A stretch of 64,000 nucleotides of DNA from Haliotis rufescens (Eukaryota), in NCBI RefSeq assembly GCF_023055435.1, contig NW_025964334.1:12896001-12960000 (forward strand). The letters are read 5' to 3'. The translations under genes and the position numbers were made by a program. The notes under the pieces are model-generated. The model worked only from the letters and a program-made list of their open reading frames with translations. It was not told where the DNA came from and made no database searches. Positions 13,861 through 42,269 of the stretch are shown in pieces; positions within the stretch are counted from its first letter, which is position 1; each line of letters opens with the position of its first letter.

Positions 13861-15132
13861 TCATGGCGCGCGCGCGTGCGTGCGTGCGGGCGTGTGTTTG
13901 TTTCTTTTTGTTGTAAACTGTAAATTCATTATTTGGATTATTCATTCAATCAAGACTCTTCGTTTCGCAAAGCACCATTTTCGTTAACTTGACCAGCGTG
14001 TATTCTTTCCCTTGCAAGAGGTCCGTAGACTTCAAGAATATTTTTTGTTGACGTTGATTTTGTATATAATCATATCCAAATGTATTATCAAGAACTTTTT
14101 AAAACTCAAAAATGTTTTGTTACCTTCGTCGTTACTTTTTTTCTGTCCTATGCTGAGTTCAGCAATATTCCAGCCTACAACGAAAATTGGACCCAATCGT
14201 AGTACCTAATTCAGGGCAAGACTCAAGTGATACACATTGTTGTAAGAATTATACTTGGAGAAAGGTTTTTCTATATTTTCAGAAAGCCTTTACTTCGTAC
14301 GATGATTTCTTGACAAAATGAACGCCCCAGATGCCGTTCTTCTGTTTTCTCGATTATTTTTGTATAGTGCATCCTGTATTATGCACTGTATTCTATCTTC
14401 ATTCCATCTTGATCTATTGCTTCGTTTCAAGCCCGATTCAAATGTATGAAGTATGAATTGTAAGTTTCGAATGAAATTGTTCTAAGTTAGTTAAAAGAAT
14501 GGATGTTTATATGTTAAAATATACGCTGTACACTCGAGGATATGTTGAGGGTAGATTTGAAACAGACACCGCTTGGAATTACAAAGCGTCCGTAAAATAT
14601 ACCAAATGTGCCAGTTCCTTACATAATTATATTGCTTGCCTTCAGCTGACCCCCTTAATATTGATAAGCACGAAAGGACATTTCTACTAAATGTAAAGGT
14701 TTGAATATCTTCTCTAGTTAAAAACAAAACAAAAACGAAATAAAAACACCCAAAAAGTTCACAAAGATGGACCGACTGAGCTTCGTTGCACTGATTTACT
14801 CTATGGCACTGTCCTGTCTGGAGGAACTATCTCCTTGTGGGGAACCCCGTGAAGATCGGCGTTAGCATTGATCTTCAACAAACCATGCTTGTCTCCCCCC
14901 GTGAAGATCCGGGGTAAAATTGATGTTCTTCAACCCATGCTTGTCGTAAGAGGCGACTAACAGGATCAGGTGGTCAGGCTCGCTGACTTGGTTGATAGTT
15001 GTCATTGTTTCCCAATAGCGTAGGTCGATGCTCATGATGTTTTTCACTGGATCGTCTGGTCCAGACTCGATTATTTACAGAACGCCGATGAGTGCGGCAT
15101 TAAACAACAAATAAACAAACTGTGGATAATGA

Positions 15133-15304
15133 GTGAGTGAGTTTGGTTTTACGCCGCTTTTAGAAATTCCAGCAATATCACAGCAATATCACGTCGGGGG
15201 ACACCAGAAATGGGATTCACACATTGTACCCATGTCGGGATTCGAACCCGGGTCTTCGGCGTGACGAGCGAACGCTTTAACCACTAGGCTACCCGACCGC
15301 CCCT
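15133..15304 (-). mobile_element. SINE family A copy
   Basis: TSD tgtggataatga (15121-15132 and 15305-15316). Confidence 0.88.
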
Positions 15305-21772: not shown

Positions 21773-22227
21773 TGTTAGATCAAGGAACAGATACCTGTGG
21801 AGAAAGAGGTGGTGTAGACATTTCAGCCTAGGTTAAGTCAGGGGCCATTTTCCGGTATATCTTATTAAAGAAACGTATGTTTCTGGTAAAACAAGTGACA
21901 TTGGTAACCAAATACCTTTTCCTTATCACACAAAAATTATTCCAATGGAAAAAAAATAAATTTAATGAGGCCTTTTTGAAATTGTGTGCGGCTCAGTCGT
22001 CGACACATCAATATCGGCAATAGCTATTCTTTCATAATTTTGTTTGTTTGTTGTTAAACGCCACACTCGGTAACATTTCAACAATATGACGGCGTCTGTA
22101 AATAATCGAGTCTTGGCCAGATAACCAGGTGAGTGACATCATGAGCATTGCTCAACGCAAATGGGATACGATGACATGCATCAACCAAGTCAGCGAGCCT
22201 GACTAACCGATCCCGTTAGCTGCCGCT

Positions 22228-22750
22228 TAAGACAAGCATTGGTTGGTGAAAACCAATTCTTACCAAGATCTTCACGGGGGTAGACAAGAAATGGGTGGGT
22301 GTAGATCGATTATAACCCGGATCTTCACGGGGGTCGACAAGCATGGGTCGGAAAAGATCAATAATAACCCGGATCTTCACGGGGGTAGACAAACATGGGC
22401 TGGTGAAGACCAATTCTAAACAAGATCTTCACGAGGGTAGACAAGCATGGGTTGGTGAAGATCAATAATAACCTGGATCTTCATGGGTGTAAGACAAGCA
22501 TTGGTTGGTGAAGACCAATTCTAACCGGGATCTTCACAAGGGTAGACAAGCATTGGTTGGTGAAGACCTATTCTAACCCGGATATTCATGGGGCTAAGAC
22601 AAGCATTGGTTGGTGAAGACCAATTATAACCCGGATCTTCACAGGCGTAGACAAGCATGGGTTGGTGAAGACCAATACTAACCCGGATCTTCACGGGGGT
22701 AAAACAAGCATGGCTTGGCGAAGACCAATACTAACCCGGATGTTCATGAG
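22228..22750 (-). repeat. Tandem array of ~10 copies of the 52-bp 5' head of retroposon family B
   Basis: Unit agacaagcatgggttggtgaagaccaattctaacccggatcttcacgggggt is contiguous with a family B copy. Confidence 0.92.
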
Positions 22751-27368: not shown

Positions 27369-27533
27369 TGAGTGAGTGAGTATGGTTTTACGCCGCTTTT
27401 AGCAATATTCCAGCAATATCACGGCGGGGGACACCAGAAATGGGTTTCACACATTGTACCCATGTCGGGAATCGAACCCGGGTCTTCGGCGTGACGAGCG
27501 AACGCTTTAACCACTAGGCTACCCGACCGCCCC
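27369..27533 (-). mobile_element. SINE family A (~165 bp, tRNA-Asp/Glu-like head, (ACTC)n tail); young copy
   Basis: A box tagcctagtgg, B box gggttcgattccc, 16-bp TSD gttagttgatggagag. Other copies at ~2075, 7709, 12193, 15133, 18753, 23911, 24460, 30029, 31365, 32500, 33254, 42112, 44273 and 62378. Confidence 0.9.
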
Positions 27534-29144: not shown

Positions 29145-29339
29145 GACACATTTACCACTGTGAAACTGACATCAAAATGTAACCCTCGAAGAATCCAATA
29201 ATAAATCAAATGCAACAGCGATGGCACCAGGTGCTTGCGAAAAGGTGAACATATCCTGCCTCACTGGTAGCTCCCGTCACAAACACATGCAAAAGCAAGG
29301 CAAAGCTCACCCGAAAACAAACAAAACACGGGAACTTAC

Positions 29340-30020
29340 GGCATGAGCCGAAATAGAGAACCCTCATCCAAGATCACTACATCCGATTGCGCCACCTACG
29401 TGAAAGGAAGACCACAGCCACCTCAACCGCATCGTAAATACCCGGACTGCGCAGAATCTCCGACCAGACCGTACGAAACCGTTTAAGAGCAGCAGGTCTA
29501 CGAGCGAAACGTCCTGTACGACGCGCCATATTGAGTCGACAACATCGTCAACAACGGCTGCATTGGTCTCGTCAACACAGGGTATCGCCTCAACTGCGAT
29601 GGAGAGATGTCTGGTTCAGAGACGAACCAAGGTTTCTCCTCCGTCGAGGGGATTGAAGAGCACGGGTCTACAGATGTCGGGGAGAACTTTCCGCCGGAAA
29701 CTGCGTACAGGAAGTGGACAGGTTTGATGGGGGTAGTGTTATGATGTGGGCGGCTATCTCTCATCATGGCAGGACAGGTTTGGTCCATATCCAGGGCAAT
29801 CTTGCGGCTCAACGATACATCAACGAAATTCTTCTACCACACGTCCTCCCAAATGCAGCTAACGGCAACTGTGTATTCCAGCAGGACAACGCTCAACCGC
29901 ATACATACAGCACGGATCACTAGAGCCTGTCTACACAACAACAACGTTGATGTTCTCCCCTGGCCCTCTAGATCCCAGGATTTGAACCCGACAGAGCACC
30001 TGTGGGATAAATTGGATAGA
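29340..30020 (+). pseudogene. Decayed Tc1-family transposase fragment
   Basis: Motifs ISDQTVRNRLRAAGL, VWFRDEPRF, GGSVMMWAAI, FQQDNA.PH and WPSRSQDLNPTEHLWD; contains in-frame stops and a frameshift, and is cut by a SINE at ~30029. Confidence 0.9.
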
Positions 30021-30304
30021 CCCAACCCTATTCCAGCAATATCACGGCGGGGGACACTGGAAAATGGGCTTCACACATTGTACCCATGTGGGGAATCGAA
30101 CCCGGGCCTTCGACGTGACGAGCCAACATTTAACCATTAAGCTACCCCACCGCCCCGTAAATGTGTTAACCCCAGTGGGGTATTATATGCATATAAACGC
30201 ATTTCGACATTTGCCCTACCAGATCGTCTTGCAACACTCCTGTTTACTTCACTTACTTCACTGGTTACGATAGTTGTTGTCAAAGCACACATCATTTCAG
30301 ATTA

Positions 30305-30546
30305 GACCCGTGAAGATCCGGGGTAGAATAGGTCTTCAGCAACCCATGCTAGCCGTAAAAGGCATGCTTGTCGTAAAAGGCGACTAACGGAATCGGGTGG
30401 TCAGGCTCGCTGACTTGGTTGATGCATGTCATCGATCACAATTGCGCGGATCGATGCTCATGATATTAATCACTGGATTGTCTGATCCAGACTCAATTAT
30501 TTACAGACCGCTGGAATATTGCTGAGTGCGGCGTTAAACAACAAAC
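30305..30546 (+). mobile_element. Retroposon family B (~250-270 bp, non-tRNA structured head, (AAAC)n tail)
   Basis: Starts gacccgtgaagatccggggtagaataggtcttcagcaacccatgc and ends gctgagtgcggcgttaaacaacaaac. Copies at ~1236-1495, 11301-11541, 12078-12190, 14845-15120, 15925-16195, 17733-18156, 22041-22280, 31641-31882, 34410-34852, 43048-43255, 45815-46082, 51678-51921, 54661-54840 and 63920-64000. Confidence 0.88.
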
Positions 30547-30667
30547 ACACATTTTAGATCAAATTTCAATCTAATTGTCCACGTGTTGTCTGTATTCTTT
30601 CAATTGCGGCCCTTGCCAAACTGAAGGGTCAGTGCATCTCTGATGTCCATGAAGGACGCCTCCGTTG

Positions 30668-31357: not shown

Positions 31358-34300
31358 CCAACCCTATTCCAGCAATATCACGGCGGGGGACACTGGAAAA
31401 TGGGCTTCACACATTGTACCCATGTGGGGAATCGAACCCGGGCCTTCGACGTGACGAGCCAACATTTAACCATTAAGCTACCCCACCGCCCCGTAAATGT
31501 GTTAACCCCAGTGGGGTATTATATGCATATAAACGCATTTCGACATTTGCCCTACCAGATCGTCTTGCAACACTCCTGTTTACTTCACTTACTTCACTGG
31601 TTACGATAGTTGTTGTCAAAGCACACATCATTTCAGATTAGACCCGTGAAGATCCGGGGTAGAATAGGTCTTCAGCAACCCATGCTTGCCGTAAAAGGCA
31701 TGCTTGTCGTAAAAGGCGACTAACGGAATCGGGTGGTCAGGCTCGCTGACTTGGTTGATGCATGTCATCGATCACAATTGCGCGGATCGATGCTCATGAT
31801 ATTAATCACTGGATTGTCTGATCCAGACTCAATTATTTACAGACCGCTGGAATATTGCTGAGTGCGGCGTTAAACAACAAACACACATTTTAGATCAAAT
31901 TTCAATCTAATTGTCCACGTGTTGTCTGTATTCTTTCAATTGCTCTGATGTCCATGAAGGACGCCTCCGTTGNNNNNNNNNNNNNNNNNNNNNNNNNNNN
32001 NNNNNNNNNNNNNNNNNNNNNNNNNNNNNNNNNNNNNNNNNNNNNNNNNNNNNNNNNNNNNNNNNNNNNNNNNNNNNNNNNNNNNNNNNNNNNNNNNNNN
32101 NNNNNNNNNNNNNNNNNNNNNNNNNNNNNNNNNNNNNNNNNNNNNNNNNNNNNNNNNNNNNCCAGTCTGGGCACCGTTCCACAAAGCGATCTTAGCGTTA
32201 CGACTATCGTAAGCCAGTGTTAAAGTATGGGACTTACGATCACCTTAGCGCTAAGATGGCTTTGTGGAACGGGGCCCTGGTAGGTAGGGCCGATCTTTGT
32301 TTATACACAGGCTGTGTAGTGCGACAGCTGCAGCCACAAGGGTTGACACGAAATTAACATCAATGTCAACCCTCTTGAGGAAACGCCTCCATCTCCCTTC
32401 AAACCATCACAGCCTGCATAACAATGGAGTTCCACCCGTTAATATCTGTTTCCCAAAATCAGGGGGGGGGGGGGGGGGGGTGTGTGGCTGGGGGGGGGGG
32501 GGCCTAGTGGTTAAAGTGTTCGCTCGACACGGGTTCGATTCCCCACATAGGTACAATGTTCGAAGCCCATTTCTGGTGGCTCCCGCCGTGATATTGCTGG
32601 TATTTTCTTTAAAAAGGCGTAAAACAATACTCAGCATGGCAATACTTTGGGGCAAGGACACGTGAAGCATCTATTGTTCCTTCACAGTTCGGAGAGTTCT
32701 ATTTGTCTTTTAAACTAAGCCCATTTATAGAATCCCCGCCGTGATATTGCTGGAATATTGCTTTAAGCGGCGTAAAAACATATTCACTCGCTCACTTTAG
32801 AACCATTAATGACAGTTCATTGAAAATCCTCTGATGTATGGCGTCGCAGACGTCATGGACGCAGATACACAGTTGACCTGGCTATTCCCAACAAGTTACC
32901 CGCAGTTCAGTGCTCCACGGTTGTGGCCAATACACAGCGACTGCTACCCCATATTCAGGCTCTGGTTGTAGGCAGATGAGTGAGTGAGTTAAAGCTTTAC
33001 GTCACATCGGCAATATTTCAGCCATATCGTGACGAGAACACTTATAATACTGACATTAATGTAGGCAGATGACTTGAAACAGGGCGAGACACTTTGAAAT
33101 GTTTTTAAAACAATATGGTTTCACCGACTTCTGCATCTTTCCTACATCCAGATTAATCTTTCTCATAGAAAAGACGAGCTTATTGGTAAATCACACTCTT
33201 GTTTCAAACGTTGCCTTCTCCTTCTCCGAGCACTACGTCCAAACCTCTCCGATGCGGTCGGGTGGACTAGTGGTTAAAGCTTTCGCCCGTCACGCCGAAG
33301 ACCCGGGTTCGATTCCCGACGTGGGTACAATGGGTGAAGCCAATGGGTGAATATTGCTAAAAGCGGCGTAAAACCATACTCGCTCACTCCAAACCTCTCC
33401 ACTGTCTTGACTCAGATTAGTTAAATTGATTGACATATTATGAACTACTCATAGTATACCCGTGCATATTAACACCACTTTTTATCCTTTCCCCGATGGA
33501 CTGGGCTGGGGGTGGGAGTTGGGTATTGTACCCCTGGGAGCAAAAAGGATGCATATAAAACGGCTAAAATAAAGAAAGGCTTTTTTCACCCTTTCAGACA
33601 CAAAGTTAGACTTTTTCGCCAGCAGGCAATTTTGTATTCAGCACTTGCAATATGTGTGCTTCATTACAATATAAATATAATCATATATACAGTTTGGAAA
33701 TATTTCCTCAAATACTTTGTCTTTGTAAGTCAGACAGGAAAAGTGTTGATATAAATATTCAGGCATTTTCTTTTCAATGATATTGTTACCAGTTTCCATC
33801 GTTTCAAAACATGTCCTTGTGGAAATTAGGTATTATCTTGTCGTTCGATGGCGGAGGTCTATTGCCGACATTGGCCGATAGACATCATTCATGAAATAAA
33901 ATACCACGTATGTTTCGCCGGTCTTATGTTCTCAATGGTGAGGATGTCGAAACCGCAACTGAAATGAATGCCGAGGTATCCCAGTGCAGCTCAAATTGAC
34001 GTAATGTTGTGCAAAATCAATGCTTTCACCCAGAACATAAGTCGGTTGCAGCCAAGCTATTCGAGTTGGAAGAAGTTTGTGTTCTCAGAACACTACACCG
34101 GGAAATGGAAATAAACATTTATCATCAATCTCTTCGTTCGCAGATTTTATTGTTTTGCATGTATACTTTATTTTAAATCTACAATAGGCGCACGAGCGTG
34201 GACACAGCGGACCGGGGTGCATATTGGATAGATTTGCTAGAAACAAATGCACATTTATGTTTTTGTTTTTGTTGTTTAACGCCGCAGCTATATGACGGCG

Positions 34301-42111: not shown

Positions 42112-42269
42112 GTGAGTATGGTTTTACGCCGCTTTTAGCAATATTACAGCAATATCACGGCAGGGGACACCAGAAATTGGCTTCACACATTGTACCCATG
42201 TCGGGAATCGAACCCGGGTCTTCGGCGTGACGAGCGAACGCTTTAACCACTAGGCTACCCGACCGCCCC
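42112..42269 (-). mobile_element. SINE family A copy nested in an older family B copy
   Basis: TSD ttcttcttatga; interrupts a decayed family B element at ~41925-42300. Confidence 0.85.

Follow-up and report, generated by a model that had tools for sequence, protein, structure and literature searches.

A covarying pseudoknot module common to LP-type SINEs, Nimb-type LINEs and RNA viruses is a candidate exoribonuclease block

The window analysed here, 64,000 nucleotides of Haliotis rufescens DNA (contig NW_025964334.1, positions 12,896,001 to 12,960,000, forward strand), contains a whole LP-type SINE at 30305..30545 on the plus strand, composed of a head, a decayed tRNA-like region, a body, a Nimb-like tail and an AAAC-type tandem repeat of the kind that ends copies of the family at the 3′ side. 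The preceding bases (30286..30304) resemble 30546–30561 by eye and represent the 5′ copy of a degenerate target-site duplication. By sequence inspection, the head begins at 30305. It opens with the two nucleotides GA (30305..30306), the family 5′ end and the inferred exonuclease stop, followed by a pseudoknot in which stem S1 (30307–30310 with 30319–30322) encloses the 5′ strand of stem S2 (30312–30318 with 30331–30337). The conserved loop AGAAT (30325..30329) would cross S1 and is predicted to make A-minor contacts. Hairpin S3 follows (30338–30341 with 30347–30350), then the partly deleted first copy of a hairpin duplicated in a young subfamily (30352..30363) and the near-invariant hairpin P4 with its TAA (30370..30387), all on the plus strand; the S3 loop can also pair with bases after the last hairpin to form a second, weaker pseudoknot, P3. 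The sequence described in the first-pass annotation is that of the family consensus, from which this copy departs in its hairpin remnant, in an AAAAG loop and in the ACGGA that follows it; its fold z-score is only −1.25.

Other copies in the window include one at 31641..31881 (plus strand), which arose by tandem duplication of 1,336 bp at this locus (854/901 identical) and is no independent insertion, one at 22041..22746 (minus strand) whose 5′ part is an array of head monomers of ~52 bp that contain the pseudoknot and S3 and lack P4, and one at 14844..15117 (plus strand) with two head monomers. Upstream of the SINE, at 29300–30010, the translation reveals by eye a decayed Tc1/mariner-like transposase fragment. 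A head 15-mer matched 19 times in the window against 0.98 expected, and across the 1.33-Gb genome a 25-mer found 9,669 perfect matches, its reversed control 0. The abundance that had been proposed is borne out, as is the start at 30305. In 35 coordinate-picked regions (346 kb) there were 64 head matches of at least 50 nt; 21 started at nucleotides 1–4 and 0 at 5–20, and a peak of starts at nucleotides 61–67 stems for the most part from copies with one hairpin, where the query had two. Extrapolated from this 346-kb sample, the genome would hold roughly 80,000 head-intact copies. A target-site duplication was detectable in 27 of 53 full-length copies, a partly head-selected set, and joined the element at GA in 24 of the 27, so that the shared 5′ end claimed for intact copies holds. 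An older copy of the head sits inside a ~640-bp satellite unit (G000:C57:2176621-2191343).

Judged by its sequence, the SINE is of a known kind: it is an LP-SINE, whose ~70-bp head is homologous to the 5′ region of Nimb-17-type LINEs. The available text of Matetovici et al. 2016 (PMC4758252) describes LP-SINEs (Hdi_LP, Hmi_LP, Lsa_2, Sgl_LP) with this ~70-bp head, with target-site duplications and with the head common to the 5′ ends of Nimb-17_LMi, I-3_DR and RTE-9_CPB, and the same motif is present in its scallop alignment (Suppl. Fig. S2) and in the Haliotis LINE L201. Hmi_LP is listed there at 255 bp, near the length of the Haliotis SINE, a likeness of length that stops short of same-family identity. 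The AATATA hexamer cited there was absent from the Haliotis copies inspected. In the portions available, that description proposes a promoter role for the head, cites the Pr77 ribozyme as a parallel and includes no fold for the head, no viral copies, no abalone tRNA remnant and no ribozyme ahead of the head. A search of full-text literature, with Repbase, Dfam, motif catalogues, figures and most supplements outside its scope, returned no paper that connects this head with a fold, with viruses or with resistance to exonucleases, and the core 15-mer occurred in no main text searched. An RNA motif bridging retrotransposons and RNA viruses is well supported and apparently undescribed, the SINE kind itself having been known since PMC4758252.

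The decayed tRNA-like region spans about 30399–30466 (plus strand), with an A-box-like sequence at 30407 and a B-box-like 11-mer at 30448, and scored 43 against 26.7 ± 4.1 for shuffled sequence (matched by 1/1000 shuffles). Rfam gave no tRNA match over it, and ARAGORN at a relaxed score did not call it in family copies by an overlap test. The earlier statement that the family has no A/B boxes therefore holds for the head alone. A tRNA-derived Pol III SINE opens with a tRNA head bearing A/B boxes; here there is only the decayed region, ~95 nt inside the element, and the family does not fit that class. The Nimb-like 3′ tail and terminal repeat (30505..30545, plus strand) were assigned by alignment to the 3′ end of L201; the likeness is modest (score 52 against 36.1 ± 4.4, 3/1000 shuffles). 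A second, tRNA-headed SINE family with the same Nimb-like tail occurs in the window at 15227–15298, 27457–27528, 42193–42264 and 30030–30156. Among metagenome loci, L086 and L117 exemplify another family in which, by eye, the head is fused ahead of a tRNA-like region, and L121 and L094 a ~20-copy family with only the 3′ part of the head (AGAAT onward), adjoining a GTAA-type repeat. Comparison by eye of scallop MESC SINEs, the L086/L117 family and the Haliotis family suggests that the head was captured repeatedly before a Pol III promoter.

Covariation across 25–27 families shows the ~75-nt head to be a conserved RNA module, with an H-type pseudoknot followed by two hairpins. A metagenome scan for the head gave at least 120 loci, which were clustered with genome, viral and MAG loci into many families; 25 natural representatives, picked among complete copies with truncated and chance-like clusters left out, were aligned on sequence only (alignment A1). 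RNAalifold recovered S2, S3 and P4 from A1. When 2,861 column pairs were ranked, the first three places went to pairs within S3 and S2, S3 taking the first. In the full model (S1, S2, S3, P3 and P4), 82% of cells are paired against 67.3 ± 1.3 in shuffled controls, and 95 cells show double changes against 41 ± 5 (0/500). Since this model was derived from the alignment on which it was scored, an alignment-free partner swap was also run on 27 representatives and gave z-scores of −7.5 for S2, −6.8 for S3 and −3.9 for P3; the viral rows alone gave −4.4, −2.4 and −1.5, respectively. Double changes occur at 7/7 pairs of S2. S1 is mostly conserved and weakly covarying (84% of cells paired over three counted pairs, double changes at one), and P3 is 57% paired. 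AGAAT is at least 90% conserved in A1, having been partly selected by the search patterns. Four of the five P4 pairs never vary, an invariance partly built in because P4 was a search pattern, and the loop and TAA vary in LINE copies.

These results support the earlier view of the head as a conserved structured RNA, and its 8-bp stem (7 bp counted here), its short gca/tgc stem and its hairpin proved real. The four-way junction into which they had been drawn is replaced by the pseudoknot and two hairpins. Its closing stem cccgt/acggg (swap z −0.5) and kissing pair gggt/accc (swap z +0.4, no excess pairing over shuffled) showed no covariation; together they were 37% paired against 38.5% in shuffled controls, a figure for a stem placed one column off that becomes 42% at a +1 slide. 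The C of ACTAA, proposed as catalytic, is engaged in pairing, A and C being the last paired bases of the hairpin in 24/25 and 25/25 rows, respectively. Rfam yielded no family at the head, either at the gathering threshold or at E values up to 10, its ribozyme models included, and none at the viral or MAG copies. An HDV-like assignment, which calls for the order P1-P2-P3/L3-P1-P1.1 with a pyrimidine-rich L3 and for an unpaired catalytic C in J4/2, was rejected for the head, as the covarying fold has no P3/L3 inside its first stem and no Rfam match, and by eye none of the consensus structures of HDV, twister, pistol, hammerhead, hairpin or hatchet ribozymes fits.

The motif is also present in viruses. 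A first search pattern returned 0 matches; the head pattern matched 7 viral contigs against 0 for its reversed version, and a looser pattern added one. Other looser scans gave only partial matches in coding regions or without the pseudoknot, and phage records held no motif match. In six small viral records the motif lies on the sense strand, 3′ of the last long-ORF stop (by 6, 10, 23, 74, 100 and 123 nt) and 89–184 nt from the contig end, with tandem copies in two of the six (L305 and L310). RdRp or capsid families of different kinds were found in five of the six lineages, in a small sample in which the remaining record, L305, has no Pfam match. A further copy, in a 212-kb DNA-virus record (L307, IMGVR_UViG_638276288_000001), is intergenic, on the sense strand near a gene for NAD-dependent DNA ligase. 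Seven matches in bacterial genome records look eukaryotic, apparently lying in symbiont bins or at contig ends, and were not counted as bacterial. The bacterial MAG contigs L259, L262 and L264 carry eukaryotic-looking SINE sequence near their ends, probably as contamination.

Since the motif occurs in RNA viruses, any shared function must act on RNA. These SINEs are very abundant in invertebrate hosts, and the viral copies could be neutral captures of this RNA that retain structure without a shared function. We regard this as very improbable: viral S2 is maintained by compensatory change, and the copies in the small records carry no SINE body, lie without exception on the sense strand and in 3′ UTRs, and are duplicated in two cases.

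In LINEs, the motif is preceded by a second RNA element. L201, found by pattern search (G000:C2:22557001-22567000, minus strand), is a full-length 6.2-kb Nimb/I-type LINE with an open ORF1 (444 amino acids), an ORF2 encoding endonuclease, RT and RNase H, and a 13-bp duplication. The LINE begins 58 nt before the head motif, and the target-site duplication abuts its first base, G1. The 58-nt leader begins with G in 66/67 copies, the base before it being random, and has a 7-bp P1 with G1·U as its first pair (53/58 copies), a P2 (56/58), its own P3 (57/58), a P1.1 (56/58) and a catalytic-type C in GCTAA (57/58). It aligns to three Rfam HDV-type models, all below the gathering score (best E 0.0016). 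On these sequence features the leader is a separate, canonical-looking minimal HDV-like ribozyme without an HDV-type P4 and a putative self-cleaver. It shares every HDV-like feature of the known 5′ ribozymes of LINEs and likewise marks the LINE 5′ end; it differs in lacking P4, in being a separate module missing from the SINE and in belonging to Nimb, which is absent from the six clades with 5′ ribozymes listed in the available text of Kojima 2018 (PMC5786205). Whatever the motif does, the cassette of ribozyme and motif would extend HDV-like ribozymes to Nimb-type LINEs, and it may serve as an RNA-stabilizing 5′ module.

Genome-wide, at least 1010 of 1079 LINE-type heads directly follow the exact end of this leader, and the ten exceptions among the first 100 matches listed keep leader sequence, nine whole and one in part. 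Among 70 ORF1-anchored LINE loci, the UTR is missing from nine; of the other 61, one begins at the motif and one within it. In these LINEs, the head probably neither cuts nor starts transcripts at its own 5′ edge. The cassette is 85–100% identical (median 96%) across L221–L250 and L265–L304, with ORF1 identity of 52–100%, which suggests exchange of 5′ modules among LINE families. That the motif is so strongly conserved although a ribozyme precedes it hints at another job. Many LINE copies cluster in a few regions, such as C445:31.1–32.0 Mb.

One such job could be that of a cap-independent translation element or a ribosome- or protein-docking element, acting on uncapped post-ribozyme LINE RNA and in viral 3′ UTRs; the SINE would retain the motif to reach fresh LINE protein and have its 5′ end set otherwise. 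The 96% median identity behind the ribozyme, with ORF1 down to 52%, favours this idea, and the near-invariant hairpin resembles a binding site. A position in the viral 3′ UTR also suits translation enhancers. As the main role of the motif we consider it unlikely, since it leaves two features of the SINE 5′ end unaccounted for. First, conservation in four SINE families starts abruptly 5–6 nt before the conserved TG, that is, 0–2 nt before S1. Second, monomers with the pseudoknot and S3 and no P4 can set the end. Head monomers of 50–52 bp are repeated as minisatellites, with as many as about 40 units per array (window 22266–22746; junction matches number 190 genome-wide). A duplication was seen at 3 of 13 array loci, and these three copies begin at such monomers, with the complete head further in remaining intact. 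Docking or translation and an exonuclease block are compatible, not mutually exclusive.

All four SINE families have a purine as their first base, as expected of an internal Pol II promoter that initiates transcription at its first nucleotide, which is the published LP hypothesis; the 5′ GA shows G in 35/46 and A in 40/46 copies, and the position before it is random. A promoter would also agree with the arrays of monomers at 5′ ends and with the single intergenic copy in the DNA-virus record. Some L1 promoters form 5′ monomer arrays. We nevertheless judge a promoter quite unlikely: the compensatory pairs are evidence for RNA, a DNA stage is lacking in RNA viruses, and transcription starting at the motif edge is disfavoured because it would strip the leaders that LINE heads, the ten inspected exceptions included, retain. 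Pr77 of L1Tc/ingi, which according to the available text of PMC4758252 is promoter and ribozyme at once, resembles the head in being a short 5′ signature common to different LINEs and their non-autonomous partners; Pr77 is itself HDV-like, and the SINE head is not.

The other proposal for the SINE 5′ end, made in the first-pass annotation and restated here for the corrected fold, is a new class of self-cleaving ribozyme cutting at the foot of S1. An end flush with a helix is seen in HDV-like ribozymes, and the size, pseudoknots and invariant bases agree with ribozyme criteria quoted in the available text of PMC10085705. Cleavage at the motif edge is disfavoured because LINE leaders, arrays and viral ends would be stripped: LINEs retain the 58 nt upstream, internal complete heads are uncut while hairpin-less monomers define the end, and a cut 90–185 nt from the viral 3′ end, inside the 3′ UTR, would remove the genome end. 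With the proposed catalytic C paired and no Rfam ribozyme match, we consider this class improbable and self-cleavage by the head probably wrong.

We propose instead that the head is an xrRNA-like block to 5′–3′ exoribonucleases that occurs in LP-SINEs, in Nimb-type LINEs and, in several unrelated RNA viruses, in the 3′ UTR, a reading to which we give about even credence. It builds on the fold given by covariation, the distribution and position of the motif and the sharp SINE ends; from these we infer the remainder. A SINE copy inside a host Pol II transcript would be reached by Xrn1 or Xrn2 after decapping or cleavage, and the exonuclease would halt 0–2 nt before S1, creating the SINE 5′ end. 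The trimmed RNA, ending in the Nimb-like tail, would be reverse-transcribed by the Nimb LINE protein, and the old tRNA promoter inside the SINE would then have decayed. In the LINE, the HDV-like ribozyme would give a 5′-OH end 58 nt upstream, little trimming would follow, and the motif would act as a second barrier or in a second role; in viruses, the block would leave 3′ fragments of 90–185 nt. In this way the head could plausibly free or stabilize the element from host read-through RNA, as had been suggested. A bolder version, held a little more tentatively, is that RNA viruses and non-LTR retrotransposons exchange a new xrRNA class, which is what allows a SINE to do without a promoter, with a host decay enzyme sizing the SINE RNA.

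An exonuclease stop would spare the LINE leaders because a 5′-OH HDV end resists decay, as argued in the available text of PMC11331408, so the LINE heads that remain behind the ribozyme are as expected. Also in favour of a block, the pseudoknot lies at the 5′ edge of the RNA that would be protected, as in xrRNAs, and pseudoknot-S3 monomers alone mark the 5′ end in three copies; this monomer evidence is weakened by the possibility that the arrays grew at the DNA level and by the duplication being found in only 3/13 loci. Several points count against a block. The trimmed LINE class is nearly absent (1/61), the near-invariant P4 is unneeded for marking a 5′ end, and the purine first bases are those of a transcription start. 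In addition, common H-type frameshift pseudoknots fail to stall Xrn1, even with an added hairpin, according to the text available of PMC10321173.

Viral xrRNAs, as described in the available parts of PMC11702639 and PMC8374639, lie at the start of 3′ UTRs, are often tandem and need their pseudoknot, and the head resembles flavivirus class 1/2 and plant-virus class 3 xrRNAs in its pseudoknot, its place at the 3′ UTR start and its tandem copies. Compared by description, it has neither the three-way junction of classes 1/2 nor the stacked P1/P2 with L2B loop of class 3. The coremin xrRNA (xrRNA-C), for which the accessible text of PMC10321173 and PMC10520033 gives an H-type-like pseudoknot with a required hairpin and a halt of Xrn1 one nucleotide before the first stem, is similar in its small pseudoknot, downstream hairpin and viral 3′ UTR location, and the stop proposed for the head would likewise fall just ahead of the first stem; the head differs in having no likeness to the coremin 20-mer, a much longer S2 (7 bp) and an extra invariant hairpin, and in occurring in retrotransposons. 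Assignment to xrRNA class 1, 2, 3 or coremin was rejected, the defining features in those descriptions being absent from the fold and Rfam giving no match at the motif.

If Xrn1 is blocked, the head would be a new xrRNA fold, would place such folds in cellular mobile elements and would add to promoters and ribozymes a third way of making the 5′ end of a retrotransposon; an xrRNA would then exist in animal genomes, in tens of thousands of copies in Haliotis rufescens. Since 2016 it has been a question how LP-SINEs, in the absence of a Pol III promoter, come by a defined 5′ end, and a 75-nt covarying module common to SINEs, LINEs and unrelated RNA viruses makes it a one-week experiment. Last, small-RNA reads on the LINE locus L299 numbered 7, 231 and 9 in three runs; they are few, consist mostly of one antisense 31-mer and show no pile-up at either 5′ end. 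This 31-nt antisense RNA (L299:512-542; 127 reads with one start in run X22) lies over the LINE pseudoknot and is piRNA-like.
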